A stretch of 58,835 nt of DNA from Candidatus Eiseniibacteriota bacterium (lineage in GTDB: Bacteria > Eisenbacteria > RBG-16-71-46). Where the stretch lies: the NCBI GenBank assembly GCA_044222065.1, contig JBGAOA010000021.1:1-58835 (forward strand), written 5' to 3'. A program made the translations under genes and the position numbers. The notes under the pieces were generated by a model, which saw nothing but the letters and a program-made list of their open reading frames with translations, was not told the origin of the DNA and ran no database searches. Of the stretch, positions 1,450-40,897 are shown piece after piece. The number at the start of each line of letters is the position of its first letter. Position 1 is the stretch's first letter.

Positions 1450-1475
1450 ACGAGGACAGCCCGTCGCCGCCGACT

Positions 1476-1577
1476 GCCTCGAGAGCCGCACCGGACGCCC
1501 GCCACGTCGCGAGCACCGAATCCAGCTGCAGTGCCTCGCGCGGTTGGCGCCGGTGAGCACCCGATCATCCGCTGGCC
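1476..1577 (+). mobile_element. Heavily eroded attC-like remnant
   Basis: Paired L-box arms GCCGCACCGGACGCC (1485-1499) / GGCGCCGGTGAGC (1546-1558); R boxes not recognisable, ends approximate. Confidence 0.45.
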
Positions 1578-1599
1578 AACACCAAGAACGGAGGCTCAA

Positions 1600-2040
1600 A
1601 TGACTCGGTCACGCATGCTGCTGCTCTTGTTCGTGTTCGCGGCCGGCCTCGCCGCGGGGCTTGCCATTCCCGCCCTCGGTGGCTCGGCCGGATCGAAGGT
1701 GACCAATCTGCTTACCACGAGCCTCTCGACGGAATTCACGCCCGGGCGCGAGGTGCTCATTGACCTCGTGGAGATTCCTCCCAACCAGAAGCTGGACTGG
1801 CATTGGCACCCGGGCGAGGAGTTCCACTACTACCTGAAAGGCAATCCCGTCATTGAACGCGACGATGCGCCGCCCATCGTCGGCAAGCCCGGCACCGTGG
1901 GACATGTCGCGTTCAAGCAACGGCACCAGGCGAGCGCCGGGAATAAGGGCGCGAGGATCCTCGTGTTTCGCGTCCACACCAAGGGCGAGCCGTGGCGCTA
2001 TGTGGACGAGAAGCACAGCCCGCAAGGCAATGGTGAGTAG
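1600..2040 (+). CDS. Exported cupin-domain protein
   Basis: Signal peptide; WHWHPGEEFHYYLKG and later H cupin motifs; GGAGG RBS. Confidence 0.85.
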   Translation: MTRSRMLLLLFVFAAGLAAGLAIPALGGSAGSKVTNLLTTSLSTEFTPGREVLIDLVEIPPNQKLDWHWHPGEEFHYYLKGNPVIERDDAPPIVGKPGTVGHVAFKQRHQASAGNKGARILVFRVHTKGEPWRYVDEKHSPQGNGE

Positions 2041-2054
2041 CGCTTGACCGCGCC

Positions 2055-2117
2055 AGCCAACAACCGCGAGCAGCGGCCGATCCGCCGCGCGGACCGCCGA
2101 TGGACCGGGCGTCCTGC
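2055..2117 (+). mobile_element. Degenerate attC site
   Basis: AGCCAAC-AACCGC-GAGCAGCGG...TCCGCCGCGCGGACCGCCGATGGACCGGGC-GTCCTGC; same size and central sequence type as 892-956; R' decayed. Confidence 0.6.
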
Positions 2118-2150
2118 CTCGCACAACTGACGAGCCGGGTGACTGACAGC

Positions 2151-2696
2151 ATGATCTCTCCTCCGATCGACACCCCATCCTTGCGGCTGCGACGCATCGT
2201 CGTCGAAGACGCGGCGCGGATGATGGAACTGAACGGCGAGCCGACCACGCGGCGCTGGCTGCCTTCGCACGTCTACCAGGACATGAACGAAGCGACGTCT
2301 CGCACGAGCTACCTGGTCTCGTGCTACGCGTCGCCGGGCGATCCGCGCCTGGGCCCGTACGTGCTCGCCGTCGAACACCTCGCGAGCGGGACGTTGCTCG
2401 GACACGTCGGGTTCAGTCCCTATCACGACGAAGTGGAGGTGTCCTACGCCATCGCCGAAAGCGCTCGCGGGCGCGGGTACGGATCGGAGGCTCTGCTCTT
2501 CGCGTGTCGATGGGCGGCCGCGAGCTTCGATCTGCCGAGCATCCTCGCCATCACCGAAACCGCGAACGCGCCGTCGCGTCGCACTCTGGAGCGCGCCCGA
2601 TTCGTGCACGACCGGGACGAGGTCCTGCAGTTCCAGGGCAGAGAGGAAGCCGTCAGTCGCTACTTGTGGCGCCCGTCCGGGGAGCCAGCGAGGTGA
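2151..2696 (+). CDS. GNAT N-acetyltransferase (RimJ/RimL-like)
   Basis: IDTPSLRLR...EVSYAIAESARGRGYGSEAL...NAPSRRTLE; alternative GTG start at 2139. Confidence 0.85.
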   Translation: MISPPIDTPSLRLRRIVVEDAARMMELNGEPTTRRWLPSHVYQDMNEATSRTSYLVSCYASPGDPRLGPYVLAVEHLASGTLLGHVGFSPYHDEVEVSYAIAESARGRGYGSEALLFACRWAAASFDLPSILAITETANAPSRRTLERARFVHDRDEVLQFQGREEAVSRYLWRPSGEPAR

Positions 2697-2841
2697 GGCG
2701 TGACGGTTTGATCGAGTCGACCCGATGCAGTGGGTCCAACGGCTCCGCACTACGATCGGAGAGCATCGTCGCTGCGCGTCTCGGCAACGCCTGCCCTCGC
2801 GGGCGCGATCCGTTCGAACGTTGCACTCCCACGAGGCCTTC

Positions 2842-3318
2842 ATGACCGTCCAACGCATGGACAACGTCGGCATCGTCGTCGAAGACCTCGATGCGACGAT
2901 CGCCTTCTTCGCCGAACTCGGCCTCACGCTCGAGGGCCGCATGCGCATCGATGGCGAGTGGGCCGGGCGCGTCACCGGCGTGCGCGGCCAGCGCGTCGAG
3001 ATCGCCATGATGCGCACGCCCGACGGCCACGGCCGGCTCGAGCTATCGCGCTTCGACGCGCCGGCGATCGCCTCCGATCACCGCACGGCCCCGGTGAATT
3101 CGCTCGGCTACCTGCGCGTCATGTTCGCCGTCGACGACCTCGACGACACGCTCGCGCGTCTCGCGAAGCGCGGCGCGACGGTCGTGGACGAAGTCGTGGA
3201 CTACGAGGGCATCTATCGGCTCTGCTACCTCCGCGGCCCCGAGGGGATTCTCATCGGGCTCGCCGAGGAACTGAGGCGGCCTGCGGGCCGCGAGAATCCC
3301 GGCGCACGCGAGGGTTGA
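2842..3318 (+). CDS. VOC/glyoxalase family protein
   Basis: RMDNVGIVVEDLDATIAFFAELG...RLCYLRGPEGILIGLAE. Confidence 0.9.
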   Translation: MTVQRMDNVGIVVEDLDATIAFFAELGLTLEGRMRIDGEWAGRVTGVRGQRVEIAMMRTPDGHGRLELSRFDAPAIASDHRTAPVNSLGYLRVMFAVDDLDDTLARLAKRGATVVDEVVDYEGIYRLCYLRGPEGILIGLAEELRRPAGRENPGAREG

Positions 3319-6547: not shown

Positions 6548-7105
6548 GTGAGGATCCTCGAAGCGACGCACTGCACGCTCGAGCCGCTGACGGTGGCTCA
6601 TGCGCGCGAGATGTTCGGCGTGCTCGGCGACCCGGCGATCTACGAGTTCGAGAACGAACCGCCGCCGTCCGAGTCGTGGCTCGAGGAGCGGTACGCGCGC
6701 CTCGAGCGCCGCGCCTCGCCGGACGGCCGCGAAGCGTGGCTCAACTGGGTCGTGCGCCTTCCCGGCGGCGAGGCGGCGGGCTACGTCCAGGCCACGGTGC
6801 GCGGCTCGGGCGACGCGCTCGTCGCGTACGAGCTGGCGAGCTGGCACTGGCGCAAGGGCATCGGTTCGAGCGCGGTCTCTGCCGTGCTGGATGAACTACG
6901 CTCGAACTACGGCGTGCGCACGTTCGTCGCGGTGCTCAAGGCCGCGAACCATCGGTCGCGCGGCCTGCTGCAGAAGCTCGGCTTCGAGCCGGCATCGCCG
7001 GCGCACTCCGAAGCGTTCGGCGCCGGGCCGGACGAAGCGGCTATGGTCCGGGGCGTCGACCCCCGCGAACACGGTCGAGCGGCAGGGTCGGCCCGGGAGC
7101 GCTGA
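6548..7105 (+). CDS. GNAT N-acetyltransferase (RimJ/RimL-like)
   Basis: LEPLTVAHAREMF...WLNWVVR...GYVQATV...WRKGIGS...NHRSRGLLQKLGF. Confidence 0.88.
   Translation: MRILEATHCTLEPLTVAHAREMFGVLGDPAIYEFENEPPPSESWLEERYARLERRASPDGREAWLNWVVRLPGGEAAGYVQATVRGSGDALVAYELASWHWRKGIGSSAVSAVLDELRSNYGVRTFVAVLKAANHRSRGLLQKLGFEPASPAHSEAFGAGPDEAAMVRGVDPREHGRAAGSARER
6817..6999 (+). repeat. Direct repeat, left copy (183 bp; pairs with 19967-20149)
   Basis: Ungapped manual alignment at offset 13,150 with 15 mismatches. Confidence 0.95.
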
Positions 7106-7237: not shown

Positions 7238-10200
7238 TCACGGACCGTAGGCGCGAAACGCGGCCCAGTAGAACGGGTGCGTGGAGCGTCCGGTCCGGCG
7301 TCGCTCGGCGAGGACGCTCCGGCAGGCGGAGGCGAGAGCCGCCGAGGCCCGAACTTCGCCCCTGCTCCGTGCGCCATACAGCGAGCGCATCCACTGCACA
7401 GTGGAGGCATCCTCGACCGGCCACTGACTGGCGATCACGCTTCGTGCGCCCGCGAGTCTGAACGCGCGCTGCATGCCGAGCGTTCCCTCGCGCGACCAGT
7501 TCTCTGCGTAGCCGGACTGACAGGCGGAGAGCACCACCCAGTCAGCCTGTGAAAGGTCGAGCGTGACCACTTCCTCGGCGGTGAGCAGGCCGTCGTCCTC
7601 ATCATGCGCGGCATCGGGTGCATGATCGGCAGCGGCAAGCGCGAGCCAGACTCGACGGCCCATCCAAGGTGAGGCCGGCGGCGGCGGCTCGGGCGAGGAG
7701 GCCCGGGGGCGGGAGCGAACCGCCGGCGGACCGCCGACGATCGCGATACCGCCGAAGCCGCGCTCGCCGCCGGAGGCGCCGCGACACGCGTTCCCGAGAA
7801 CGTAGCCGTGCGTGGCGACGTGGATCACGCGCGCTCGTGGCGCGAATTCCCGGAACGCACTTTCCGTCGCGTCGTCGCCGACCAGCACGCGCGCCTCGGC
7901 GCCGCGTTCCGATTCCCACGACTGCGCGGCGTCGCGAACTTCAGTCGCCGTGTTCGGCAGCGGGCGGAAGCGCGGCCAGGCCCGAATGGCGCACGTATCG
8001 ACGGCCGCACGCAGGACGAAAGCACTTCCACGGTCCGTCGGGGCTTCCCCGTAGCTCGGGTCCCCGAGAGCCAGCAGCACGCGGCTGATCGTCGGCGAGG
8101 AGTCGGGGAGAAGATCGCGTTCGCTATCGGCGATCCGAATGGACCGGTCTTCCTCGACGAGGTAGCGATCGTCACCGACCGGAAGCGCCAGCCACGCGAC
8201 ATCGGCGAGGGGGTCATCGGGAACGATCACGAGATCCTGGGCGTTCCCGATGGCGGCCGCGATCGGATCCCAGAGCATCGTGCGTACTCGGGCGCCGAGA
8301 CGCCGGCACTCACGCTCCGCCCGGCCTCCTGTCCGCGCGGCCGCACCGGGCGAGTTCGCGAGCCGCTCGCGCCAGGGCTCGAGCACGGCCCTCAGCTCGG
8401 CTGAAGTGCCGAACGATAGCCGCGTGATCGCCGATTCGCCTCCGCGCGTCACGTACGCGAGCACCCGTCGCGTGCCGTCTCGCGCCTCCACCTCGGCGAA
8501 CGCCACGAGCGCCTGCCCGGGCGAGAGCGCCGCGCGCACGTCGCCGAGGCCGACATCGGTGCGCGTCGTGTCCGTGCCACGCGATCTCAGGGCGCGCGTG
8601 TAGCTCGCGGACGCCTCGTCGGCAGCGAGCGCCAGGCCCGCCAGGGCGGATCGACTGGCCGAGTCCTCTGCCGACGCCGCGCCGCGGACGAGTCGGCGGG
8701 CGAACTCCCGCTGCGCGGAGGTCCAGCGCCGATGCGCCGCGACGAGCGCAGAGTCGGATTGGAGGCCCGTGGGCAAGCGGCGATGCTGCAGTTCCGCCCT
8801 CACCAGCCCCCGTCTTCGGACGAGTCGATCCCACGACGTCTCCCAGCGCTCCGGACGCTGTTCGTCGGCCTGATCGAGCACCTGGTCGAGGATGTACGAG
8901 CGGCGGCGGACGAGTTGCAGCGCGCGCGAGTCCGGCAGCATCGCGAGGTCGAGCCGCAGGACCTCACGATCCATCCGATCGGCTTCGAGCGCGCCCGACC
9001 AAGCGAGGTCCGCCCGGCCGAGATCCCGGTCCGCGCGGGCCATCCAGTGCGCGAGCATCGCGCCGGTGGACGTCCCTGCGAGCCCGAATCGTGAGCGGAT
9101 CGCTTCGAGTTCGCGGCGCGCGGTTGCGATCTGGTTCGTATCGCCCATGGCCTCGGCGATGCGGATCTGCAGCGCACGTGAACTGACCTGTGAAATGCGA
9201 TCGGGCACCGCGGAGGAGTCGTTGAGCGCGATGCCTCGCCGGCACGCGGCAAGCGCTTCGGCGTGGTGCTTCTTCGCCTGGTGCACCTGGGCCTGACCGA
9301 GCACCGCGATTGCGCGCACACCGGGATCGAGGGGGTCGGGGTGAGCGCGAGCCTCGGCTTCAACCTGCTCGAAGTGAATCAGGGCTTCGTCGTACCGGCC
9401 GAGTGCCAGGTAGCAAGCCGCGAGATTGAGGCGCGCGGTGCGCACGACCAACTCCTCGGGAGTCGCGATGCCCTTCACCGCGCTCATCCCGGCTTCGAGT
9501 TCGCGGAGCGCTCCCTCGTCGTCCTCGAACTGCATCAGGATCGTCGCCAGGTTGCTCCTGCCTGCCAGGACATCACGCGGGTCTCCGCCGGCCTCGAGGT
9601 CGCGGAGGCTGGCGTAGCCGAGGTCGATCGCGCGCGACAGGTCTCCCGACAGCGTGGCCAGCTCCATGAGATTGACCATCGGGGTGCTCCTCGCCCGGTC
9701 GCTCGGAGTCGCGATGGCATCGAGCACGCGAAGCGCCTCTTCGTGCGAGAAGCGCGCGGAGTCGGAGTCGCCCACCTGCAAGTACGCTTTGCCGATCCAG
9801 CTCAGCGGGTTCAGCATCCGGCGGTAGGGGCCGCCTGCGTAGCGCCGCCAGTCTTCGACCGCTGCGCGAAGGATCGGGATCGCTTCCCGCCCGCGGCCGG
9901 CCAGGACGCGCATCACTCCGATGTCGACTTTGGCGGTCGTGACCAGCGAGTCGAGCGGTGTCGGCTGGCTCGCGAGGATGGACAACGCCAGTTCAGCGTG
10001 CGCGAGGGCGCGGGCCGGATCGGAATCGAAGGCCTGCTCGGCGTACACCAACTCGGCCTCGCCAATCGCTTCGTCGTTCGGCGGCAGGTGGCGGATCCGG
10101 ATGCCGAGGGACTGCGCGATCCGGCTTCGAGCGAGGTCGTCGGAACCGAGCCGCTCGTTTCGAGCATGGGCAAGGCGGAAAGCGAGCTCGGCGATCCACA

Positions 10201-10396
10201 ACGAGTCGGCCGCGGGCCGAGCCTCCTCGTCCCGCAGCAACGCGGTCGCGAGGCTCTCCACGACCGCCCCGTTGTGGCCGGTCAGGACCGCACGCCAGCG
10301 CTCGTTCGGAGGATCGGGGCGCGCGGATGCGGCGAGCGGCCCGGACGCCAATGCGAGTGCGGCCGGCAGGAGTGAGGCGATCCAGAGTCGGTGCAT
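7238..10396 (-). CDS. Exported TPR-CHAT (caspase-like, clan CD) protease
   Basis: Signal peptide MHRLWIASLLPAALALASGPLAASA; helical TPR-like repeats; CHAT motifs LVIVPD, DDATESAF, IHVATHG (catalytic His), VVLSACQS (catalytic Cys), HPFYWAAF; alternative GTG start at 10402. Confidence 0.92.
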   Translation of the reverse strand: MHRLWIASLLPAALALASGPLAASARPDPPNERWRAVLTGHNGAVVESLATALLRDEEARPAADSLWIAELAFRLAHARNERLGSDDLARSRIAQSLGIRIRHLPPNDEAIGEAELVYAEQAFDSDPARALAHAELALSILASQPTPLDSLVTTAKVDIGVMRVLAGRGREAIPILRAAVEDWRRYAGGPYRRMLNPLSWIGKAYLQVGDSDSARFSHEEALRVLDAIATPSDRARSTPMVNLMELATLSGDLSRAIDLGYASLRDLEAGGDPRDVLAGRSNLATILMQFEDDEGALRELEAGMSAVKGIATPEELVVRTARLNLAACYLALGRYDEALIHFEQVEAEARAHPDPLDPGVRAIAVLGQAQVHQAKKHHAEALAACRRGIALNDSSAVPDRISQVSSRALQIRIAEAMGDTNQIATARRELEAIRSRFGLAGTSTGAMLAHWMARADRDLGRADLAWSGALEADRMDREVLRLDLAMLPDSRALQLVRRRSYILDQVLDQADEQRPERWETSWDRLVRRRGLVRAELQHRRLPTGLQSDSALVAAHRRWTSAQREFARRLVRGAASAEDSASRSALAGLALAADEASASYTRALRSRGTDTTRTDVGLGDVRAALSPGQALVAFAEVEARDGTRRVLAYVTRGGESAITRLSFGTSAELRAVLEPWRERLANSPGAAARTGGRAERECRRLGARVRTMLWDPIAAAIGNAQDLVIVPDDPLADVAWLALPVGDDRYLVEEDRSIRIADSERDLLPDSSPTISRVLLALGDPSYGEAPTDRGSAFVLRAAVDTCAIRAWPRFRPLPNTATEVRDAAQSWESERGAEARVLVGDDATESAFREFAPRARVIHVATHGYVLGNACRGASGGERGFGGIAIVGGPPAVRSRPRASSPEPPPPASPWMGRRVWLALAAADHAPDAAHDEDDGLLTAEEVVTLDLSQADWVVLSACQSGYAENWSREGTLGMQRAFRLAGARSVIASQWPVEDASTVQWMRSLYGARSRGEVRASAALASACRSVLAERRRTGRSTHPFYWAAFRAYGP

Positions 10397-10473
10397 GCGC
10401 ACAGTCTAGGAGCGCGACCCACGATGAGCCACGATCCTTTTCGCTCTCGTCCGAAGAAATGGCGGCACGGGCG

Positions 10474-10503
10474 TTGTCCACGCGCTCGCACACTGCCTAT
10501 ACT
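10474..10503 (+). promoter_or_regulatory. Putative sigma70 promoter for the ECF-kinase operon
   Basis: TTGTCC-N18-TATACT, 36 nt upstream of the TTG start. Confidence 0.5.
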
Positions 10504-10539
10504 CCCGCGTCGCATCGGGGTCACGTGTCGAGGTGCTCC

Positions 10540-11136
10540 TTGAACGAGTCGAAGAAACCCTCTCCCGAGCTCGCCTTGACCGTCGACCTCCTGCGCCGCG
10601 CCAAGTGCGGGGAGAGCGCCGCCCTCGACGAGTTGATCAGCCGCTTCGTCCCTCGCCTCACGCGATGGGCCACCGGTCGTCTGCCCATGCGCGCGCGCGC
10701 GCTGCTCGACACCGCCGACCTCGTTCAGGACGCGCTGGTCGGGACGCTGCAGACGCTCGACCGGATCGAAGTCCGCGGGCCGACCAGTTTCCAAGCCTAT
10801 GTTCGCCAGGCCGTGCTGAACCGTGTCAGGGATCAGGTGAGGTGGGCGGACCTTCGGCGGGGCTCCGAAAACGCCGAGGATCTCGAGTTCGTCGATCCGT
10901 CACCCTCGCCGCTCGAGCAGGCCATCGGGGCCGACGTAGTCAGGCGATACGAGCGCTCGCTGGCCACGCTGTCGGAGGAGGAGCGTCAGGTGATCCATCT
11001 GCACGTCGAGCTCGACTACGACTACGGCGCGATCGCGGAGATGACCGGAAGGCCAAGCCGGGACGCGGCGCGCATGGCGGTGCAACGCGCATTGAAGCGC
11101 CTCGCGGAGGCGATGGGGCACGAGGAGACGACGTGA
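10540..11136 (+). CDS. ECF sigma-70 factor
   Basis: DLLRRAKCGESAALDEL...DTADLVQD...FQAYVRQAVLNRVRD (region 2); LSEEERQVI...IAEMTG...AARMAVQRALKRL (region 4); TTG start after GAGGTG. Confidence 0.9.
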   Translation: MNESKKPSPELALTVDLLRRAKCGESAALDELISRFVPRLTRWATGRLPMRARALLDTADLVQDALVGTLQTLDRIEVRGPTSFQAYVRQAVLNRVRDQVRWADLRRGSENAEDLEFVDPSPSPLEQAIGADVVRRYERSLATLSEEERQVIHLHVELDYDYGAIAEMTGRPSRDAARMAVQRALKRLAEAMGHEETT

Positions 11137-12848
11137 GCGAGGATCCGCGCGCACTCGATCACCTGATCGAGTCGTGGTCCGAGACCTCGACCGAGAGTCT
11201 GGCCGCCGGCGAGTCCGGTGCCCGGAGGGTCGAAGGCGCGAGCGTTCGCGCGTTGCGCGACATCGCGAGGATCGCCGACTTCAATCGCACGTTGCAGCGC
11301 GCCGAGTCGGCCGCAGGGCCGATGCCCGAGCGGTGGGGCGATCTGTTCCTCATGGAGCACGTGCGGTCCGGAGCGAGCGCGGACGTCTACCGGGCCTGGG
11401 ATCCCTCGCTCCGCCGCGACGTCGCGCTCAAGTTGCTGCGCGCGCCGCGCGGCGATTCGGACGGGGTGGACGAAGCGCGCGCGAGCGCTCGTATCCGGCA
11501 TCCGGGAGTCGTTACCGTATTCGGCGCCGCCGAGCACGACGGGCGCCACGGCGTCTGGATGGAGTTCGTCCGCGGTGAGACGCTGGCCGAGAGGATCGAG
11601 CGCGCAGGCCCGCTCGACGCGCTCGAGGTTGCCCGCATCGGCGCCGCGCTCGCCGAAGCGCTGAACGCCGTGCACGCGGACGGACTCGTCCACGGCGACG
11701 TGAAGCCTGCGAACGTGATCCTCGAACCGGGCGGACGCGTCGTTCTGACCGACTTTGGCCTCGGGCACCCCTGGACGCGCGAGCGACGCGGAGCCTTCAA
11801 CGTGTCGGGCACGCCGCTGTTCCTCTCACCCGAGCGTCTCGAAGGTGAGCCTGCGACGCCCCGGTCCGACCAGTACGCGCTCGGTGTGACGCTCTGGTTC
11901 GCCGCGACCGCGCGCTACCCTTACGAAGCCGCGACCTTCGAGCAGTTGAACGCCGCCGTCGCGAGCGGGGTGCGTGCGGCGCTGCGGGAACAGCGACCGG
12001 AATTGCCCGAGGCGCTGTCGGCCACGATCGAGCGCGCCACGAATCCCCGTGCCGCCGATCGCTTCCCGGGCCTCGAGGCGCTCGGCGCGGCGCTCGGGAG
12101 CCGCGCACACGAGCCGGCCGCTCGGACGCCGCCCCGCTCGCGCCCGGCACTCGCCCTCGCGGCGGCCGGCGTCCTGTTGCTGGCGGCAGTCACGTGGCTC
12201 CTCGTTCCGCGCCCGCGTCTTGATTCCCGCGATGCGACGACGCTCCGTGAAACGCCGGCGGCCGAAGGCTCGACTGTCTACGACGTGGACGCGACGTTCG
12301 TGCGCCGCACCCTCGGCGGCTACGAACCGCTGACCTCCGGCGATCGGGTGGCGCCCGGCGACGACGTGTCGCTCGAGTTCCGATCCACGCAACGGGCCTG
12401 GGTCTACGTGATGAACCAGGACGATCTCGGTTCGACGTTTCTGCTTTTTCCCCAACCGGTGTTCGACCTCGACAACCCGCTCGCCGCGGACTCCACGCTC
12501 GTCCTGCCGGGGCCCATCGCCGGACGCGAGAGCGCGTGGAAGGTCACGAGCCGCGGCGGGCGCGAACAGTTGCTCGTGATCGTGAGTCCTGCGCCAGTAC
12601 CCGAGCTCGAGGCCGATCTCGACCGGATGCCGGCGCCGCGTCGGAACGAGCCCGTTCGGTACGCGCCAGTCACCGGGCCGACCACCGAGTGGCTGCGCGG
12701 AATGGGTGGCATCACCGATGCAGCGCCACCGCCCCGGCTGGCGGCGCCGACGCGTGCGTTCGATCGGTTCCGAGCGCTGGCGGGGCGGGAGAGCGGCGTA
12801 CGTGGTGTCTGGGTGAGGCGAGTCGTGTTCGAGAACCTGGCACCCTGA
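11133..12848 (+). CDS. Membrane Hanks-type Ser/Thr kinase with C-terminal DUF4384-like domain
   Basis: VALKLL, HGDVKPAN, DFG, GTPLFLSPE, SDQYALG; one TM helix (ALALAAAGVLLLAAVTWLLV); GDRVAPGDDVSLEF...WVYVMNQD...LLFP; GTGA overlap with the ECF gene. Confidence 0.9.
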   Translation: MSEDPRALDHLIESWSETSTESLAAGESGARRVEGASVRALRDIARIADFNRTLQRAESAAGPMPERWGDLFLMEHVRSGASADVYRAWDPSLRRDVALKLLRAPRGDSDGVDEARASARIRHPGVVTVFGAAEHDGRHGVWMEFVRGETLAERIERAGPLDALEVARIGAALAEALNAVHADGLVHGDVKPANVILEPGGRVVLTDFGLGHPWTRERRGAFNVSGTPLFLSPERLEGEPATPRSDQYALGVTLWFAATARYPYEAATFEQLNAAVASGVRAALREQRPELPEALSATIERATNPRAADRFPGLEALGAALGSRAHEPAARTPPRSRPALALAAAGVLLLAAVTWLLVPRPRLDSRDATTLRETPAAEGSTVYDVDATFVRRTLGGYEPLTSGDRVAPGDDVSLEFRSTQRAWVYVMNQDDLGSTFLLFPQPVFDLDNPLAADSTLVLPGPIAGRESAWKVTSRGGREQLLVIVSPAPVPELEADLDRMPAPRRNEPVRYAPVTGPTTEWLRGMGGITDAAPPPRLAAPTRAFDRFRALAGRESGVRGVWVRRVVFENLAP

Positions 12849-13001
12849 TCTCGGCTTCGGGCACCCCCTTCCCCGCAAGCTCGATCCGCCCGCCGAACGC
12901 GCCTGTTCGTCTGCGAGCGTTGCCCCGTTTCATCCGGCGGAGTGGGTCTGTGGACCTCCTCCGGCACGCCCACCCGGGCGTGCCCGCCCGCCGGAGGAGA
13001 C

Positions 13002-15776
13002 ATGCGCTGCGTTCGCGGACACCTCGCCGTCCTATTGCTTCTCGTCCAGATCGTCGCCGCAATCGCGACGACTTGCCCGGCCGGCGCGGCGCCCGGGGCA
13101 CTCGATCCCGCCTACGGCGCCGACGGCCGCGTCCGATTCGGATTCGGCGGAGGCGATGACTTCCCGGTCGCGGTCCTCGCGCAATCCAACGGGCGATTCG
13201 TGGTCGCGAGTTCGCGCCACGAGGGAGTCAACGCCTATGCGTGCTCGATCATCCGCTACAACGCGGACGGATCGCGCGACGGAGGCTTCGGCGTCTGGGG
13301 CGAAACGCGGGTCCAGTTCGGTGCGGGCTATTCCGACGCAGTTGGCCTCGCGGCGCAGTCCGACGGACGGCTGATTCTCCTTGCCTGGACTCCGGGGCAG
13401 TTTCATCTGGCGCGCTTCGAGGCCGACGGCCGGCCGGACACGACGTTCGGAATCGGCGGACGCGTGACCGGGCCATACACGAACGTCGAAGCGCGCGCCC
13501 TAGCGATCCAGGGCGATGACCGGATCCTGGTCGCCGGCAATCTCACCTACGGCGCATCCGGCAAGGACCTCGCGGTGTTCCGATTCACTTCCGGGGGCCA
13601 ACTCGATCCGACGTTCAATGGTTCGGGGGGCGCCTCCGCCAACGTCTTCACCTTCGACGAGGCCCGGGCGATGACGGTCCAGTCGAACGGGCGCATCGTG
13701 GTCGCGGGAGACGCCTATTCGTTTGGAGCCGGAATCGAAATGGTCCGCTTTCTCACGAACGGCGCACTCGACTCGAGCTTCGACGGCGACGGCAAGGCGT
13801 TCTTCAACCCCGGTTTCGACATCTACGCCGGCGGGCTGGCCCTTCAGTACAGCGACACGCAGCCCGATCGCATCATCGTCGCCGGTTCCTCCGAGAATGG
13901 TTACATGGTGGCGCGCGTGACGAGCGCGGGAGTTCTCGACCCCTCGTTCAGCGGCGACGGTGTCGCGGACATCCCGACGGCGACGGGCTACGGGCACCTG
14001 ACGGCCGTGCGCGTCGACTACAGCGGACTCTCCCCGCGCTTCATCGCGGCGGGGTTCGGCTACGGGCTGTACGGAGACACCGATTTCGTCCTGACCAAGC
14101 TGGTCACGAACGGCGCGTTGGACTCGGGTTTCGATGGTGACGGCATCCTGTCCACGCGCGTCGGACCCGGCGTCGACGCCCCCCGGGCCATGACCCTCTC
14201 CGGATCGAGCGCAATCGTGGTCGGAGTCTCGGCCGCGCTCTCGGCGTTTTCGACCAATCGTGACGTCGCGATTCTCAAGTACTCCGTCGCGAGCGGGGCG
14301 CTGGACTCCGGCTGGAACGGGAGCGGCATTCGCCTCGACGACGTCGGCGACATCGAGTGCTTCCTCCGTGCGGATGAGCTTCAGCCCGACGGCCGTCTCG
14401 TCCTGTGCGGGACCACCGCACGCCAGTCGGGCTCTTACGCCATCGCGCTCGCGAGGCGCATGCCTGACGGCTCACCCGATTCGACGTTTGGCGCGGACGG
14501 CCGAGTGGTCGTCGCGAGCAGCAGCGGCGCTACCGCGGTCGCCCTTCAGCCGGACGGACGCCTCGTGGTGGCCGACGAGAATTCGCAGGTCCACCGTCTC
14601 AACGGATCGGGTTCGATCGACTCGACGTTCGGGGCCGCAGGCCGTGTCGTACTGGCGATCGGAACGATCCAATCGACGGCGAGTTGCGTTGCGGTCCAGC
14701 CCGACGGCCGGATCGTCGTCGGACTGACGTTCAACTCGTCCCCGTCCCGCACGGCCATCGCCGTCGCCCGGCTGCTGTCGAACGGGGATCGGGACGCGTC
14801 GTTCGGAACCAATGGCGTTGCGACGTTCGTGGTGGGGAGCGGCAGCGCCGAGGTCCATGCCCTTCGCGTCCTGTCCGATGGTCGCATTGTGGTCGTCGGA
14901 ACCGGCGTCGACTTCGGGGGTGCGGGATTCCTCACGCTTCGACTGCAGTCGGGTGGGGCGCTCGACCCATCGTTCAGCGCAGACGGGCTGGTGATCACGC
15001 CGATCCAGGGCGTGGGTGGGCTCGCGTGCGACGTCGAAGTTCAGGACAGCGGCGGCATCGTCGTCTCCGGGATCGGCGGCCCCTTCGGCGGTCCCGCATT
15101 CGTGCGCTACCTGTCCGATGGCGCCCTCGACTTCACGTTCGGGAACTCCGGGGCGCTCGTGATCGGGAATTCCAATCAACGCGTGAGCGCCTCGCTCCAA
15201 CTTCCGGACGGCCGGATCCTGGCCGCGGGGGAAGGTCTCTCGAGCGACGTTCCGTCCAGCATCGACTTTCTCGCGCTGCGACTAACCGCGAACGGGTCGC
15301 TCGACTCGACGTACGGGGTTGCCGGCCTCGGCACAGCGGGATTCGAACCGTGGAGCGCGGACCACGGTGTGTCGCTTCGCCTCGACGCCTACGGCCGCGC
15401 CCTGGTCGCGGGCACGTCGGACTTTGCTTTCGCGGCGGCGCGACTGCTCGGTGACGACGTAGCGCTCGGCGTCGAGCCACGCACGGGTTCGAACCGTCTG
15501 CTCGGCCTCGGCGCGTTCGCGCCCAATCCGGCGGCAGCCTCGAGTCGGGCCGAGCTGACGCTTCCCGCCGCGAGCCTCGTGACCGCCGGACTCTTCGACG
15601 TCGGCGGACGTCTCGTGCGCCGCCTGCTCGAAGGAGCACCTCTCGATCGAGGCGTCCATTCGATTCAATGGGACGGCCTCGACGGCGACGGGCGGCGTGT
15701 TCCCGACGGCCTCTACTTCCTGCGGGTTCGCGCAGGCGACCGCACGGCCTCACGACGGCTCACGGTGCTGAGATGA
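13002..15776 (+). CDS. Secreted delta-60-repeat beta-propeller protein with C-terminal FlgD-Ig/T9SS-like sorting domain
   Basis: Signal peptide; 14 xDxxF/Y(G)xxG units with QxDGRIVV motifs; C-terminal PNP...FDVGGRLVRRL...WDGLD...GLYFLRV; GGAGGAGA RBS. Confidence 0.88.
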   Translation: MRCVRGHLAVLLLLVQIVAAIATTCPAGAAPGALDPAYGADGRVRFGFGGGDDFPVAVLAQSNGRFVVASSRHEGVNAYACSIIRYNADGSRDGGFGVWGETRVQFGAGYSDAVGLAAQSDGRLILLAWTPGQFHLARFEADGRPDTTFGIGGRVTGPYTNVEARALAIQGDDRILVAGNLTYGASGKDLAVFRFTSGGQLDPTFNGSGGASANVFTFDEARAMTVQSNGRIVVAGDAYSFGAGIEMVRFLTNGALDSSFDGDGKAFFNPGFDIYAGGLALQYSDTQPDRIIVAGSSENGYMVARVTSAGVLDPSFSGDGVADIPTATGYGHLTAVRVDYSGLSPRFIAAGFGYGLYGDTDFVLTKLVTNGALDSGFDGDGILSTRVGPGVDAPRAMTLSGSSAIVVGVSAALSAFSTNRDVAILKYSVASGALDSGWNGSGIRLDDVGDIECFLRADELQPDGRLVLCGTTARQSGSYAIALARRMPDGSPDSTFGADGRVVVASSSGATAVALQPDGRLVVADENSQVHRLNGSGSIDSTFGAAGRVVLAIGTIQSTASCVAVQPDGRIVVGLTFNSSPSRTAIAVARLLSNGDRDASFGTNGVATFVVGSGSAEVHALRVLSDGRIVVVGTGVDFGGAGFLTLRLQSGGALDPSFSADGLVITPIQGVGGLACDVEVQDSGGIVVSGIGGPFGGPAFVRYLSDGALDFTFGNSGALVIGNSNQRVSASLQLPDGRILAAGEGLSSDVPSSIDFLALRLTANGSLDSTYGVAGLGTAGFEPWSADHGVSLRLDAYGRALVAGTSDFAFAAARLLGDDVALGVEPRTGSNRLLGLGAFAPNPAAASSRAELTLPAASLVTAGLFDVGGRLVRRLLEGAPLDRGVHSIQWDGLDGDGRRVPDGLYFLRVRAGDRTASRRLTVLR

Positions 15777-15838
15777 GCCCGCCCGACGTCTTTCGCGCAA
15801 CAGCTCGGGAACGAGCGCAACGAGAAAGGAGCAAACGA

Positions 15839-18800
15839 ATGAAGCCCAGGCTCCCTGCGTGTTTGCCGCTGCTGGTCTCCCTGCTGTTCCCGAGCGTACC
15901 GAATGCGGCCGAGAACACCGCGGCCCTGGCCGGAAGTGTCGGTCTCCCGGCCGAGGACGCCTCCAAGCAGCCTGGAGCGGACGCGGCATGGTGGGATCGA
16001 GCGAGAGCCACGATCGAGGCCCAGGAGTACGAGGTGTCGCTCGGGACGTCCGGACTTCAAGCGCCGAACCGGGCGAATGGATTGCGCACGCGCTTTCGGG
16101 GGACGGGGATCGAGGTCGAAGCGCGGCGCGGGGATCGTGCGGAACTGCCGTGGCGATTCGAGTGGCGCACGTTGAGCTTCGGACGCGACGGCTCCAGGAC
16201 GGCGATCGATTCGACCGAAGCTCGGAGCGAAGGTACTCGCGTGCGTTACGAACACGGCGCGCTCGTCGAGTGGTACGAGAATCGGAGGGACGGACTGGAA
16301 CAGGGGTTCACGCTCGAGTCGCGGCCGCGCGGACGGGGCACGGTGCGCGTGGAAGGCGCCGTGAGCGGAGGTCTGCACGCGGAGGTCGCGGGGGACAGCT
16401 CGCTCGCGTGGTTCGACGAAAATGGAGTCGAGGTCCTTCGCTACTCGGGCCTCCGGTCCTGGGACGCGACCGGGCGGCCGCTGCCGTCGCGAATGGAGCT
16501 GCTTACCCGTTCCCCGGGCGATGCGGCGAGTGATCCCGTCGCGCGCGCGTGCCGCGTGGCCCTGGTCGTGAACGATCGCAATGCGGTTTATCCGATCACG
16601 ATCGATCCACTCCTGACGTCGCCCTCGTGGGTCGCCGAGTCGAACCAGGCGGGTTGCGGCTTCGGCTACGCGGTATCCACGGCGGGCGACGTGAACGGCG
16701 ACGGGTACTCCGACGTGATCGTCGGCGCGTTCGCGTACGACGATGGCGATCTGGATGAGGGCCGAGCGTTCGTGTACCACGGCTCGGCGGCCGGCCTGTC
16801 CGCAGCCTGGTCGTGGACCGTGGCCGGGGAACAGAGCGGAGCGCTGTTCGGCGGAGCGGTGTCGGCTGCAGGAGACGTCAACGGCGACGGATACGACGAT
16901 GTCATCGTGGGCGCGCAGTACTACGAGAACGGCACGCAGGACGAAGGCGGCGCGTTCGTTTACCACGGATCGGCGGCCGGGTTGAGCACCTCGGCGTCGT
17001 GGAGCGCGGAGGGAAATCAGGCGCTGTCGCTCTTCGGCGCCGCGGTCGCAAGTGCTGGAGATGTGAACGGAGATGGGTACGACGACGTGATCGTCGGGGC
17101 GTACGCCTACGACAACGGACAAACCGATGAAGGGCGCGCCTGGGTGTACCACGGATCGCCGGCAGGACTCGGTACGACGGCGTCGTGGACCGGGGAGGGC
17201 AATCAGGTCGGCGCAGCGTATGGGAGATCCGTGTCGACGGCCGGGGACGTGAACGGAGACGGCTACGCCGATGTGATCGTGGGCGCGTACCAGTACGACA
17301 ACGGGCAGGGTGACGAGGGACGCGTGATCGTCCACCTCGGGTCTGCGACCGGCCTCGCCGCCTCGCCGGCGTGGAGCGCGGAAAGCAATCAGGTGAACGC
17401 GCTGTTCGGGATCTCCGTGGGCAACGCCGGCGACGTCAACGGGGATGGCTACGCCGACGTGATCGTCGGGGCGTCCTGGTTCGACAACGGCGAGACCGAT
17501 GAGGGCAGGGCGTTTGTGTACCAGGGATCGTCGAGCGGGCTCGCCTCGTCCCCGGCGTGGACGAGCGAGGGCAATCAGGCGGGTGCGCTCTGGGGTCTGT
17601 CTGTGGCGACCGCGGGAGACGTGAACGGGGATGGCTATGCGGACGTGATCGTCGGAAGCTGGGGGTACGACCAGACCCAGCCCAACGAGGGGGCGGCGTG
17701 GCTCTACGTGGGTTCGGCGACGGGACTCCTCGACGCCGCTCAGTGGTCGGCCGCGGGTCAGCAGGCGCAGGCGGCGTTCGGGTACGCGGTGGCGACGGCG
17801 GGGGACGTGAACGGCGACGGCTACTCGGATGTCCTCGTGGGCTGTCCGAACCACGACAACGGGCAGACGGATGAGGGACGGGCGTCGGTGTACTACGGCG
17901 CGCCGGCCGGGCTTGCGACGTACTTCGCCTGGGATGATGAGGGGAGGCAATCCAACGAGAACTTCGGCTATTCGGTGTCGAGCGCGGGAGACGTGAACGG
18001 TGACGGGTACTCGGACGTGATCGTAGGTGCGCCCGACTTCACCACCAACTTCAACCAGGAGGGGCGCGCCTACGCGTATCTCGGTTCGGCGAATGGGCTC
18101 GCTCAGGCTCCGTCATGGACTGTGGAGGGCGACCAGGCCAACGGGTCGCTCGGTTTCTCGGTCTCGACCGCCGGCGACGTGAACGGCGATGGGTATTCGG
18201 ACGTGATCGTCGGTGAGGTCTTCTCGGAACACGGGCAACTCAGCGAAGGTCGAGCGTACGTCTACCACGGATCACCCACAGGGCTGGCTTCGTCTCCCGC
18301 GTGGACCGCGGAGGGCGATCAGAACGCGGCCCATTTCGGCTGGTCGGTCTCCACGGCCGGGGATGTCAATGGAGACGGCTACTCGGACGTGATCGTCAGT
18401 GCGCTCGACTACTTCGGTGGAGAGGCTTGGGAGGGGCGCGCATGCGTCTACCACGGATCGGCGACGGGGCTCGCCAGCTCTCCCGCATGGGTGACCGAAG
18501 GCAACCAGGTCGGGGCGAACTTCGGCTGGTCGGTCTCGACCGCAGGGGATGTGAATGGAGACGGGTACTCGGACGTGATCGTGGGGGCACGGTCCCACAC
18601 CGATGGGGAAGCGCAGGAAGGCCGAGCCAGCGTGTACCACGGATCGGCCACGGGGCTTGCCACCTCTCCCGCATGGGTGGCGGAGGGCAACCAGGTCGGG
18701 GCCTCTTTCGGCTGGTCGGTCTCGACGGCCGGCGACGTGAATGGGGACGGGTATTCGGACGTGATCGTGGGCGCGCCCGCGTTCGACGACGAAGAGATGC

Positions 18801-19924
18801 AGGAAGGCCTCGCCTGTGTGTTTCAGGGATCCGCCACGGGTCTCGCCGCCGCTCCCGCATGGAGCGTGGAGGGAAACCAGGCGAATGCACTGCTCGGGAA
18901 GGCTGTGTCCACCGCGGGCGACGTGAATGGCGATGGATACTCGGACGTCCTGGTGGGCTGCCCGGGCTTCGACCACGGGCTATCCGATGTCGGCGCGGCT
19001 TACTTTTACACCGGATCCGCGAGCGGGCTCTCCACTGTGGCCAGCTGGTCGGCCGAAGGAGACCAGACATTCGGGTTCTTCGCGACTGACGTCGCCGGCG
19101 CGGGGGACGTAAACGGAGACGGAGCTTCCGACGTGGCGATCGGCTATCCCAGTTTCTCCGGCGGCACGCTTCCGTATCAGGGACGAGTGAACGTCTACCT
19201 CGGCCACGACCGCGGAGGAGTGAACCGCATCGCTCGTCAGGCACGCCTCGCGGGTCCCGCGCCGATCGCGATCCTCGGGCGATCGGACTCCCCGGACGGC
19301 TTTCGCCTGAAGGCCTTAGGCCGCTCGGCCGCCGGACGAGGCGCCGTGCGTTTCCAGTTCGAAGTCAAACCGTCAGGAGTCCCATTCGATGGAACGGGCC
19401 TCGTCACCGGTCCGCTCGTTTGGACGGGAGCGCCGGCGCCGGGTTCGGGGAGTTCGGTTGCGCTCACGGGAGACGCCACGGGGCTCACGCCTTCCACCTG
19501 CTATCACTGGCGCGCCCGGATCCTCGCGGATTCTCCCTGGTTCCCTCACACGCCCTGGCTCTTCGCGCCGGACAACGCCGCGACCGAGACGGACCTGCGC
19601 ACGCCGGGCACCGCGGTCGCCGTGGAGGAAGGCCGTGCAGGTCCAGACTCGCGCGCGCTGGGTGTCCCCTCGCCCAATCCGTTCAGGACGTCGACCGACA
19701 TCGCCTACGCGCTCGGCCAGGGCGGTGCGCATCGCCTCGCGATCTACGATGTCGGCGGTCGAGAAGTCGCGGTGCTCTCCCAGGGATGGCTCGATGCCGG
19801 AGCGCATCGCGCGCACTGGGACGGCCGTGACGCGCGAGGTGGCCCGTCGCCCGATGGGATGTACTTCGTCCGGCTCGAGCTGTCCGATCACGTCGAGCAA
19901 CGCAAGCTCGTTCTGACGCGATGA
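15839..19924 (+). CDS. Secreted FG-GAP (integrin-alpha-like) repeat protein with C-terminal FlgD-Ig/T9SS-like domain
   Basis: Signal peptide; N-terminal domain (EWYEN...GLEQGF...YPITIDP); 14 AGDVNGDGxxDV repeats; C-terminal PNPFR...IYDVGGR...WDGRD...GMYFVRL. Confidence 0.9.
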   Translation: MKPRLPACLPLLVSLLFPSVPNAAENTAALAGSVGLPAEDASKQPGADAAWWDRARATIEAQEYEVSLGTSGLQAPNRANGLRTRFRGTGIEVEARRGDRAELPWRFEWRTLSFGRDGSRTAIDSTEARSEGTRVRYEHGALVEWYENRRDGLEQGFTLESRPRGRGTVRVEGAVSGGLHAEVAGDSSLAWFDENGVEVLRYSGLRSWDATGRPLPSRMELLTRSPGDAASDPVARACRVALVVNDRNAVYPITIDPLLTSPSWVAESNQAGCGFGYAVSTAGDVNGDGYSDVIVGAFAYDDGDLDEGRAFVYHGSAAGLSAAWSWTVAGEQSGALFGGAVSAAGDVNGDGYDDVIVGAQYYENGTQDEGGAFVYHGSAAGLSTSASWSAEGNQALSLFGAAVASAGDVNGDGYDDVIVGAYAYDNGQTDEGRAWVYHGSPAGLGTTASWTGEGNQVGAAYGRSVSTAGDVNGDGYADVIVGAYQYDNGQGDEGRVIVHLGSATGLAASPAWSAESNQVNALFGISVGNAGDVNGDGYADVIVGASWFDNGETDEGRAFVYQGSSSGLASSPAWTSEGNQAGALWGLSVATAGDVNGDGYADVIVGSWGYDQTQPNEGAAWLYVGSATGLLDAAQWSAAGQQAQAAFGYAVATAGDVNGDGYSDVLVGCPNHDNGQTDEGRASVYYGAPAGLATYFAWDDEGRQSNENFGYSVSSAGDVNGDGYSDVIVGAPDFTTNFNQEGRAYAYLGSANGLAQAPSWTVEGDQANGSLGFSVSTAGDVNGDGYSDVIVGEVFSEHGQLSEGRAYVYHGSPTGLASSPAWTAEGDQNAAHFGWSVSTAGDVNGDGYSDVIVSALDYFGGEAWEGRACVYHGSATGLASSPAWVTEGNQVGANFGWSVSTAGDVNGDGYSDVIVGARSHTDGEAQEGRASVYHGSATGLATSPAWVAEGNQVGASFGWSVSTAGDVNGDGYSDVIVGAPAFDDEEMQEGLACVFQGSATGLAAAPAWSVEGNQANALLGKAVSTAGDVNGDGYSDVLVGCPGFDHGLSDVGAAYFYTGSASGLSTVASWSAEGDQTFGFFATDVAGAGDVNGDGASDVAIGYPSFSGGTLPYQGRVNVYLGHDRGGVNRIARQARLAGPAPIAILGRSDSPDGFRLKALGRSAAGRGAVRFQFEVKPSGVPFDGTGLVTGPLVWTGAPAPGSGSSVALTGDATGLTPSTCYHWRARILADSPWFPHTPWLFAPDNAATETDLRTPGTAVAVEEGRAGPDSRALGVPSPNPFRTSTDIAYALGQGGAHRLAIYDVGGREVAVLSQGWLDAGAHRAHWDGRDARGGPSPDGMYFVRLELSDHVEQRKLVLTR

Positions 19925-19928
19925 CTTC

Positions 19929-20249
19929 GTGACTCTCTCCCCGAGCGCGGCGAGCGCCGGCGCCGGGCTCGTCGCATACGAGCTGGAGAGCTGGCACTGG
20001 CGCAAAGGCATCGGTTCGAGCGCGGTCTCTGCCGTGCTCGAGGAACATCGGTCGAACTGCGGCGTGCGCACCTTTGTCGCGGTGCTCAAGGCCGCGAACC
20101 ATCGGTCGCGAGGCTTGCTGCAGAAGCTCGGCTTCAGGCCGGCATCGCCCGAGGAGGTCGCGATGTACCGGGCGGGGCGAGACGAAGCGGTCCTCGTGCG
20201 GCCGGCGTCGTCGGACGTCCGAAGTCACCGAGAGGAGTCCGAAACGTGA
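19929..20249 (+). pseudogene. 5'-truncated paralogue of the GNAT gene at 6548-7105
   Basis: Only the C-terminal half (LVAYELESWHWRKGIGSSAVSAVL...LQKLGF) is present. Confidence 0.8.
19967..20149 (+). repeat. Direct repeat, right copy (pairs with 6817-6999)
   Basis: As for the left copy; weak similarity continues to GACGAAGCGG (7031-7040 / 20181-20190). Confidence 0.95.
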
Positions 20250-20668
20250 GCGTTGAATCGCGCGAGGGGGCAGCGCGCCCGTCCCTCGCCCTCGTCTCTC
20301 TGCTCGTTCGCGACTACGACGAAGCACTCGCCTTCTTCGTGGGCACGCTGGGATTCACGCTCGTGGAAGACTCCAGCGTCGAAGCGCGGGACAAGCGCTG
20401 GGTCGTCGTCGCTCCTCCGGGCGCCAACGGATGCCGGCTCCTGCTCGCGCGGGCGAGCACGCCGGAACAGTCGGCCCGAGTGGGTAATCAGGCGGGCGGC
20501 CGGGTCTTCCTGTTCCTGCACACGGACAACTTCTGGCGCGACTACGACGCGTACCGGGCGAGGGGCGTCGAGTTCGTGCGGGAACCGCGGGACGAATCTT
20601 ACGGAACCGTCGCGGTTTTCCGGGACCTGTACGGCAATCTCTGGGATCTTCTGGAGCCGGTTTCCTGA
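20246..20668 (+). CDS. VOC/glyoxalase family protein
   Basis: VSLLVRDYDEALAFF...KRWVVVAPPG...VGNQAGGRVFLFLHTDNF...YGTVAVFRDLYGNLWDL. Confidence 0.9.
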   Translation: MSVESREGAARPSLALVSLLVRDYDEALAFFVGTLGFTLVEDSSVEARDKRWVVVAPPGANGCRLLLARASTPEQSARVGNQAGGRVFLFLHTDNFWRDYDAYRARGVEFVREPRDESYGTVAVFRDLYGNLWDLLEPVS

Positions 20669-21888: not shown

Positions 21889-22446
21889 ATGACTCCGGAC
21901 GCCGCCGACAACGCCGCCGATCGCGCCCTCGTTGAGGCCTACCTCCGCAGCCGCTCCGAGGCCGCGTTCCTCGCGCTCTACGACCGCCACACCGACGGGC
22001 TCCACCGCTTCGCGGCGCGGCTCTGCGGCGGCACCGGCCGCGAGGCGTCCGATCTCGTGCAGGAGACGTGGCTTCGCGCGCTCGCGGCACTCGAGGGTTT
22101 CCGCTGGGGCTCGCGCCTCGGCACCTGGCTGTGCGCGATCGCGCTCAACCAGTGGCGCGAGCAGAACCGCCGCGACGCGCGGCAGCGCGGCTTCGAAGTG
22201 ATCGAGGGCGGGCGCGCGGCGCACGTCGCGCCGCCGTCGCCGGACGCGATCGCGCTCGAGCGGGCGATCGCGAGCCTCGCCGAGGGCTATCGCGAGGTGC
22301 TGCTGCTGCACGATCTCGAGGGCTACACGCACGAGGAGATCGCGCGGCACTTCGGCATCGAGGTCGGCACGTCGAAGAGCCAGCTGAGCCGCGCGCGCCG
22401 CGCGCTTCGGGCGGCGCTCGGCGAGGGGAAAGGAGTGCGGGCATGA
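21889..22446 (+). CDS. ECF sigma-70 factor
   Basis: AFLALYDRH...DLVQETW...TWLCAIALN; YREVLLLHDLEGYTHEEIA...GTSKSQLSRAR. Confidence 0.92.
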   Translation: MTPDAADNAADRALVEAYLRSRSEAAFLALYDRHTDGLHRFAARLCGGTGREASDLVQETWLRALAALEGFRWGSRLGTWLCAIALNQWREQNRRDARQRGFEVIEGGRAAHVAPPSPDAIALERAIASLAEGYREVLLLHDLEGYTHEEIARHFGIEVGTSKSQLSRARRALRAALGEGKGVRA

Positions 22447-23084
22447 CGGACGAACGGAAGCCGAACGAAGACGAGCGGCCGGCGCCGCTCGGCGACTGGG
22501 GTTCCTCGTGGGAGGCCCCGCGCGAACTCAGGCAGTCCACGCTCGAGGCCGCGCGCCGGCGCGGTCTCGTGAGAGGAGGCTCCATGACGGGGCGTGGGTT
22601 CTGGATCGCCGCGGCCGCCGCGGCCGCGGTCGCACTGGTCGTGGGCTACGGGCTCGGCGCACGGCAGGCCGGGCGAGGAGGCGAGACGATGACGCAGACG
22701 CAATCCGAAGCGACGGCGCCCGCGGGCGAGGCGGCGGCGGCGCCGAAGTACGTGCTGTTCCTGTTCGAGGACGCGTCGTACGAGACGCCCGCCGAGAACG
22801 AGATCGCGGCGCGCGTCGGCGAGTACTCGGACTGGGCGCGTTCGCTCGCCGAGCGCGGCCGGTACGTGACGGGCGAGGAACTCGCGACCGGCGGCCGGTT
22901 CCTGCGCGTCGAGAGCGGCGCCGTGGCCGCGAGCGAGCTGCAGCGCGACGCGAATCGCGGCGGGCTCACCGGTTACTTCGTGATCGGTGCCGCGAACCTC
23001 GACGAGGCGCTCGAGGTCGCGCGCACCTGTCCGCACCTCAAGTACCACGGCTCGGTGGAGGTCCGGCCGATCCAGGCGAGCTGA
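22443..23084 (+). CDS. Putative anti-sigma factor: short N-terminus, one TM helix, C-terminal YCII-like domain
   Basis: ATGA overlap with the ECF gene; TM FWIAAAAAAAVALVVGYGLG; KYVLFL...LTGYFVIGAANLDEALEVARTCPHL..HGSVEVRPI. Confidence 0.75.
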   Translation: MTDERKPNEDERPAPLGDWGSSWEAPRELRQSTLEAARRRGLVRGGSMTGRGFWIAAAAAAAVALVVGYGLGARQAGRGGETMTQTQSEATAPAGEAAAAPKYVLFLFEDASYETPAENEIAARVGEYSDWARSLAERGRYVTGEELATGGRFLRVESGAVAASELQRDANRGGLTGYFVIGAANLDEALEVARTCPHLKYHGSVEVRPIQAS

Positions 23085-40822: not shown

Positions 40823-40897
40823 TGGGGCGTGGCCAAGCGGTAAGGCACGAGACTTTGGATCTCGCATCCGGAGGTTCGAATCCTCCCGCCCCAGCCA
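40823..40897 (+). tRNA. tRNA-Gln (anticodon TTG)
   Basis: Cloverleaf: acceptor TGGGGCG/CGCCCCA, anticodon arm CGAGA-CTTTGGA-TCTCG, T arm GGAGG-TTCGAAT-CCTCC, encoded CCA. Confidence 0.97.

Follow-up and report, generated by a model that had tools for sequence, protein, structure and literature searches.

The window analysed here, the whole 58,835-nucleotide stretch of contig JBGAOA010000021.1 from a Candidatus Eiseniibacteriota bacterium, carries a locus in which the gene for a TPR-CHAT protease (minus strand) is divergent from plus-strand genes, in this order, for a sigma factor of the extracytoplasmic function (ECF) class, a receptor Ser/Thr kinase, a delta-60/DUF5122 protein and an FG-GAP protein. 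A reading made from the sequence alone had proposed these as one signalling system, and inspection of genes, Pfam matches and sequence bore out its five genes, the His/Cys dyad of the protease, the overlap of the sigma factor and kinase genes and the flanking repeat; as it had also stated, no separate anti-sigma gene lies between the two repeats. Comparison with related loci indicates that the conserved unit is three genes, encoding the ECF, the DUF4384 receptor kinase and the exported TPR-CHAT protease, and as a functional unit this trio is far better supported than any single mechanism for it. Its features are listed below, with local model confidence as the predicted local distance difference test (pLDDT).

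7238..10396, minus strand: putatively exported TPR-CHAT protease, 1052 aa (alternative start 10402; Pfam, Foldseek)
7520-7522, minus strand: CHAT C959
7745..7762, minus strand: CHAT loop motif R879-GFGGI, 16 residues past the catalytic His, within a loop predicted to be disordered (pLDDT <50)
7808-7810, minus strand: CHAT H863
10474..10503, plus strand: TTGTCC-18-TATACT, candidate promoter of sigma-70 type serving the ECF-kinase operon (1 found against 0.6 expected in shuffles; weak alone)
10540..11136, plus strand: ECF sigma factor, 198 aa, sigma2.2 motif D-T58-A-D (Pfam Sigma70_r2 and r4_2)
11133..12848, plus strand: receptor Ser/Thr kinase, 571 aa, with a helical N-terminal domain, kinase domain, transmembrane (TM) helix 340-358 and DUF4384 immunoglobulin (Ig)-like ectodomain
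12696..12713, plus strand: R522-GMGGI motif of the ectodomain, a candidate cleavage or bait loop at a loop-to-strand boundary in the model

Anatomy and co-occurrence of the three genes

Evidence for the trio includes its co-occurrence, which the sequence-only reading had named as a test of its proposal. The ECF subfamily was found in 110/200 genomes of this little-studied phylum (one unpublished genome left out), and 100 of 261 ECF matches were fetched, strongest first and then weaker ones favouring long contigs, giving 105 ECFs with the four loci of the window's own genome. Where flanks were complete, a CHAT gene lay within 7 kb at 26/38 DUF4384-kinase loci, against 0/12 loci with other-sensor kinases and 0/9 without a kinase (0/21 together); one kinase scored as lacking the domain (locus L128) resembles a diverged DUF4384, and its reassignment gives 26/39 and 0/11. 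With short flanks the counts were 7/15, 1/14 and 0/4, and 13 truncated loci were not classed. Four gene arrangements of the CHAT were seen (22, 5, 3 and 3 loci). On a quick ECF tree, at least four changes are needed to account for the DUF-less state. Among genomes at least 90% complete (one unpublished genome left out), in which kin are not independent, the ectodomain was present in 30/70, this CHAT type in 36/70, both in 30/70 and neither in 34/70, so that all 30 ectodomain genomes have the CHAT; of the six CHAT-only genomes, two that were inspected lacked the canonical loop motif, and in the other four the match was limited to the C-terminal half. Metagenome loci, mostly too short, had a CHAT at 5/21 DUF4384 loci and 0/8 without DUF4384, with 48 truncated. 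Co-occurrence is thus strong, and within the genome itself three of four ECF-kinase pairs adjoin a TPR-CHAT gene, the fourth being cut by a contig end.

Several observations concern other copies of these genes. The DUF-less loci L059-L138 combine the same ECF and helical domain with kinases whose ends, as read by eye, resemble sensor regions of TPR, beta-propeller, FG-GAP or ATPase type; several of these kinases have no TM helix. The picture is of a modular ECF-kinase family. At own-genome loci L002, L005 and L006, paralogous CHAT genes and one kinase gene are frameshifted or split, by either assembly error or decay. Unlinked motif-bearing CHAT genes occur in the same genome (L004:2298-5657 and L006:5830-9062) and could serve the kinases of other modules.

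The protease matches the CHAT domain PF12770 (E 2e-54) and TPR families and has a hydrophobic N-terminus (Pfam scan), with neither an internal TM helix nor an N-terminal zinc domain. Both dyad residues, H863 and C959, were invariant in 29/29 aligned CHATs. Foldseek ranked Csx29 first and DdvA second for the CHAT model, with separase also among the best matches; the CHAT profile found no credible match among PDB sequences. The protein looks exported, as had been proposed: 58/70 relatives have a signal-like N-terminus against 0/99 kinase controls, called by a hydrophobicity heuristic and not SignalP, and C802 and C871 are present together or absent together in 28/29 CHATs, a pairing pattern such as a disulfide outside the cytoplasm would give.

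In the kinase, which is of the non-RD type, the catalytic residues K100, E114, D189 and N194 and the DFG motif are intact, and the chain has a Pkinase match, a single TM helix, DUF4384 at residues 407-488 (E 2.5e-12) and no Cys. Its ectodomain was modelled as an Ig-like sandwich (pLDDT 80), and a fold search with DUF4384 returned generic Ig folds only (best Z 7.4). The helical domain N-terminal to the kinase is conserved, its motif being called in 74/89; the VDW motif typical of the family has been lost from the window copy, independent contigs agree on this, and no frameshift that would restore it was found, so this copy may be atypical. The domain aligned in register but weakly with RseA (P 0.0085, probability 4.7%), zf-HC2 reached a probability of 0.6%, and searches matched no zf-HC2 anti-sigma domain and nothing credible among Pfam or PDB sequences. 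A scan of genome contigs with the window kinase alone yielded 4 distant kinases only, and named homologues carry the labels Ca. Eisenbacteria/Eiseniibacteriota, Ca. Sulfotelmatobacter and Acidobacteria. Kinase-DUF4384 is listed as an architecture in a kinome atlas (10.1101/2025.01.12.632604).

The ECF stop codon overlaps the GTG start of the kinase (GTGA at 11133-11136). In the sigma2.2 motif DTxD, the Thr and the last Asp are each invariant (105/105) and the first position is D/E in 99/105 ECFs. A sigma-70-type -10 box, TAnnnT, lies upstream of 59/103 related ECFs versus 28 in shuffles, and expectation-maximization on the 103 upstream regions revealed no autoregulatory or ECF-type promoter motif; control of the ECF therefore looks post-translational.

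The sequence of the region is supported by a contig from another study that matches 7928-11483 without a single difference or gap; indels were listed in 0/4 runs (contigs from other studies). Metagenomes carrying it come from sludge, bioreactor and biofilm, and contigs from RNA runs reach the genes and a flank, although such contigs cannot demonstrate transcription.

The arginine motif shared by protease and receptor

The connection between CHAT and ectodomain that had been proposed gained a concrete candidate in an Arg motif common to both (R879 and R522), as judged from alignments. In ectodomains the consensus is L-R-G-hydrophobic-G-G, with the Arg in 45/46, the next Gly in 45/46 and the preceding Leu in 44/46; the CHAT loop reads R-G-hydrophobic-G-G, with the Arg in 29/29 aligned sequences. 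In the 31 loci where both motifs were called, partners were identical at 127/155 positions of the five-residue stretch following the Arg, versus 95.3 +/- 4.2 when shuffled (0/20000), and the residues before it agreed at chance level, so co-variation is confined to the C-terminal side. Most of this co-variation appears to be at clade level, kinship accounting for much of it. The hydrophobic position, which is the second past the Arg, also matches in 8 genomes between a kinase and a CHAT that are each unlinked. Gene conversion or DNA copying between the two motifs was considered and ruled out, because codon identity (86/186) is about the 47% background; with codons matching no better than background, selection acts on the peptide.

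We also assembled the reverse set, 40 regions with 43 CHAT matches, biased to unlinked genes. Here 11/11 CHATs adjoining a DUF4384 kinase carry the motif, and none of the 7 motif-less CHATs has a kinase nearby. Outside the module proteins, RG-hydrophobic-GG occurs 6 times in 214 k residues of the genome.

In the ectodomain model, R522 closes a disordered stretch and is followed first by a strand predicted with moderate confidence and then by the final strand of the sandwich. The Arg lies about 160 residues from the membrane, within the folded domain. On the protease side, the invariant D996 starts the helix after beta5 in the CHAT model, and the P1-Arg-binding Asp of separase sits in the helix after beta5 (PMC9729208, PMC4626109); by this analogy D996 may be its equivalent and confer an Arg preference on the CHAT. 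Arg-directed self-activation is known for the orthocaspase MaOC1 (PMC7475262).

Propeller genes and a possible acquired block

Beyond the trio, the locus has two further genes and is bounded by repeats:

13002..15776, plus strand: secreted delta-60/DUF5122 repeat protein with FlgD-like tail (Pfam; variable neighbour)
15839..19924, plus strand: secreted FG-GAP repeat protein with FlgD-like tail (Pfam; variable neighbour)
6804..7051, plus strand: left repeat, the 3' half of an intact GNAT gene at 6548-7105
19954..20201, plus strand: right repeat, a second, truncated copy of the GNAT 3' half, 84% identical to the left

Both propeller proteins have signal-like N-terminal segments. The sequence-only reading had made them the ECF-induced output of the system, a role that comparison did not support, since they are not conserved and no target promoter motif emerged: the delta-60 gene is present at 1/103 other loci and the FG-GAP gene at 6/103, none of these six a DUF4384-kinase locus, and gapped-word counts on 28 near versus 33 far secreted genes gave no target-promoter motif. 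Secreted FlgD-tail genes number 209 in the genome, where they take up 12% of the bases; their share is 16-27% in the vicinity of DUF4384 modules and 9-32% around the other modules. This abundance and the low conservation rule the propellers out as core parts; they look like interchangeable neighbours, passengers or locus-specific targets. The 209 open reading frames (ORFs) with this tail, which shows weak similarity to type IX sorting domains, suggest a large secretome with one C-terminal tag.

The G+C fraction at third codon positions (GC3) is 0.80-0.86 in the five block genes versus 0.89-0.96 in six flanking genes; it is 0.81 in a glyoxalase gene just outside the block and 0.60 in an ORF at 3433 that has no Pfam match. 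No integrase or transposase was matched among the 14 proteins scanned. The GNAT gene lies about 0.8 kb from a beta-lactamase-like gene in 2/6 relatives; in the window the beta-lactamase-like gene comes after the block. Lower GC3, repeat ends and the GNAT/beta-lactamase proximity are compatible with an acquired block, but none of the genes seen is a mobility gene. At 1003-3318 (plus strand, GC3 0.82-0.89), a run of DinB, cupin, GNAT and glyoxalase genes, all small and in one orientation, echoes the GNAT-glyoxalase order at 19929-20668, with no cassette-type repeat seen there. Elsewhere in the window, on the plus strand, are, at 21889-23084, an unrelated second ECF and after it a gene with a YCII domain that probably encodes an anti-sigma; a chemoreceptor (MCP) gene at 25147-26862 that adjoins cheW and whose signalling domain is split by an in-frame TAG at 26401-26403; and a tRNA-Gln gene at 40823-40897, distant from the block.

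Models of signalling and comparison with known systems

Anatomy, linkage, the common motif and the predicted fold are supported directly. The reading that best accommodates them, to which we give about an even chance, is that Arg-specific nicking by the CHAT switches the kinase, which controls the ECF, making a three-component trans-envelope signalling unit. ECF and kinase would be made from a housekeeping promoter, and the exported TPR-CHAT, as an Arg-specific protease switched on by some cue, would cut R/G-hydrophobic-G-G both at R879 in the loop of the CHAT itself and at R522 in the ectodomain of the kinase. Because R522 is predicted to lie in a loop inside the Ig-like domain, such a cut would leave both pieces attached: a nick, which would expose a Gly-led end and alter receptor conformation or pairing without shedding the ectodomain. 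The kinase would then control the ECF, probably via phosphorylation, with the invariant T58 as first candidate. Activation in the manner of EcfP/EcfK had been cited as a known parallel; in EcfP-type ECF43 the DAED motif is replaced by a non-acidic STTA-type motif (PMC8999054), and since the ECF here has DTAD, that kind of activation cannot be assumed.

Several results weigh against this reading. No CHAT lies near 12/38 full-flank DUF4384 loci, and 25/36 motif-called CHATs of the reverse set (one call spurious) have no kinase in the fetched region. Scored against nearest relatives, the five-residue co-variation is small, partner agreement after the Arg being 127 versus 119 (11 wins, 9 losses, 11 ties); 18 non-overlapping relative pairs do favour the partners, with 9 wins, 2 losses and 7 ties, but over an eight-residue stretch that was widened after the data were seen. 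The WxVxD Asp, D996 in this CHAT, is also kept in 5/6 motif-less CHATs, the model is weak near R522 (pLDDT <50 to 69), conservation after the Arg is as compatible with docking of a peptide as with a protease site, and the ECF retains two acidic residues, so that phosphorylation may be unnecessary. A more specific form of the nicking model is possible but clearly short of even odds: an exported caspase/separase-type protease would nick the Ig-like ectodomain after Arg, the Gly-led peptide would act as a tethered ligand, and the same peptide code would govern protease activation and the pairing among protease-kinase-sigma sets in one genome. This would resemble eukaryotic protease-activated receptors.

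The same linkage and motif data apply if the ectodomain loop were instead a bait or pseudo-substrate that binds and restrains the CHAT active site, as a securin or inhibitor would, with the kinase reporting occupancy and cleavage absent or incidental. The predicted setting of the loop within a stable Ig fold suits this, and PCi is both cleaved by PCaspase and its inhibitor (10.1101/2023.06.23.546230); the Arg, however, is hardly ever replaced (45/46), unlike in a pseudo-substrate, and the copy of the motif in the CHAT is more simply a self-processing site, so that we consider the bait unlikely. Restriction of co-variation to residues after the Arg, which form the docked strand 141-146 in the ectodomain model, would also follow if the CHAT cut only itself at R879 and the freed Gly-led peptide displaced the kinase's copy from a DUF4384 groove, switching an uncut receptor. 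Such mimicry leaves the invariant kinase Arg and the preceding Leu (44/46) unexplained, and we think it quite improbable.

Nor is it probable, at a slightly lower estimate again, that the trio is a divided DdvA, in which the helical domain of the kinase is an anti-sigma, a site-1 cut by the CHAT and intramembrane proteolysis release the ECF, and phosphorylation is secondary. The DdvA precedent, the conserved domain (74/89) and its weak in-register RseA match speak for this, against which stand the domain's want of a zf-HC2 or credible Pfam/PDB match, the loss of VDW in the window copy and the distance of R522 from the membrane within a folded domain. That the genes have no direct link and travel together as accessory cargo, the motif match being convergence or ancestry, we regard as very improbable indeed: the block does have lower GC3 and repeat ends, and RG-hydrophobic-GG does occur outside module proteins, yet genome-level co-occurrence persists when the genes are unlinked, the CHAT is absent at DUF-less sister loci and motif variants are matched.

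The sequence-only reading had described the CHATs of type III CRISPR systems (Csx29, SAVED-CHAT) as cytoplasmic; as a premise for CHATs that act on sigma factors, this is contradicted by DdvA: this periplasmic TPR-CHAT of Myxococcus xanthus acts upstream of the ECF DdvS, has the His/Cys dyad and is proposed to make the first cut (PMC11506125). DdvA is a single membrane protein with a zinc anti-sigma domain, and 'DUF4384' gives 0 matches in the paper text (PMC11506125); here no chain combines a zinc anti-sigma domain, TM helix and TPR-CHAT, and a separate CHAT, extracytoplasmic by the signal-peptide heuristic, accompanies a kinase receptor. ECF43 (EcfP/PknT, EcfK/PknS), ECF59, 61, 62 and 217 share a membrane kinase at +1, the lack of a separate anti-sigma gene and a conserved sigma2.2 Thr, but are described from Proteobacteria or Planctomycetes, and the group descriptions covered mention neither CHAT nor DUF4384 (PMC8999054, PMC7826278). 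Compared with ECF43 specifically, the kinase at +1 and missing anti-sigma gene agree, whereas the trio has DTxD for STTA, Sigma70_r2 and r4_2 for Sigma70_ECF and a DUF4384 for a TPR ectodomain. TIGR02984, for comparison with ECF59/ECF217-like factors, scored 61.7 bits against a cut-off of 183.75.

In type III-E systems the TPR-CHAT Csx29 cuts Csx30, a sigma-binding partner (of RpoE) whose C-terminal domain is in some cases DUF4384, but it is RNA-triggered, Cas7-11-bound and without a kinase (10.1101/2022.08.17.504292). The SAVED-CHAT/PCaspase/PCc-sigma/PCk cluster of Haliangium ochraceum likewise unites CHAT, sigma and Ser/Thr kinase, with protease-to-kinase signalling hypothesised, and differs in its cyclic-nucleotide trigger, second caspase, CRISPR/CBASS context and uncharacterised kinase (10.1101/2023.06.23.546230). 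Among the 43 window proteins, Pfam matched no Cas, SAVED or cyclase (CBASS/CRISPR) gene, and PADLOC gave a generic kinase domain only. ECF54, an actinobacterial group that has no anti-sigma, has a TPR-CHAT neighbour besides its subtilase and carboxypeptidase-regulatory partners, and DUF4384 can be present in the anti-sigmas of ECF25; no kinase is mentioned in the descriptions of either group (PMC7826278). No description of the ECF, DUF4384 kinase and exported TPR-CHAT trio or its motif was found in the literature, with largely open-access coverage and supplements partly covered.

If true, the nicking model would join two known, separate modes of ECF control, one by receptor kinases and the other by caspase-like proteolysis on the outer side of the membrane, and would give DUF4384 a function. 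With a named cut site and mutants, the targets of exported CHAT proteases would become directly testable.

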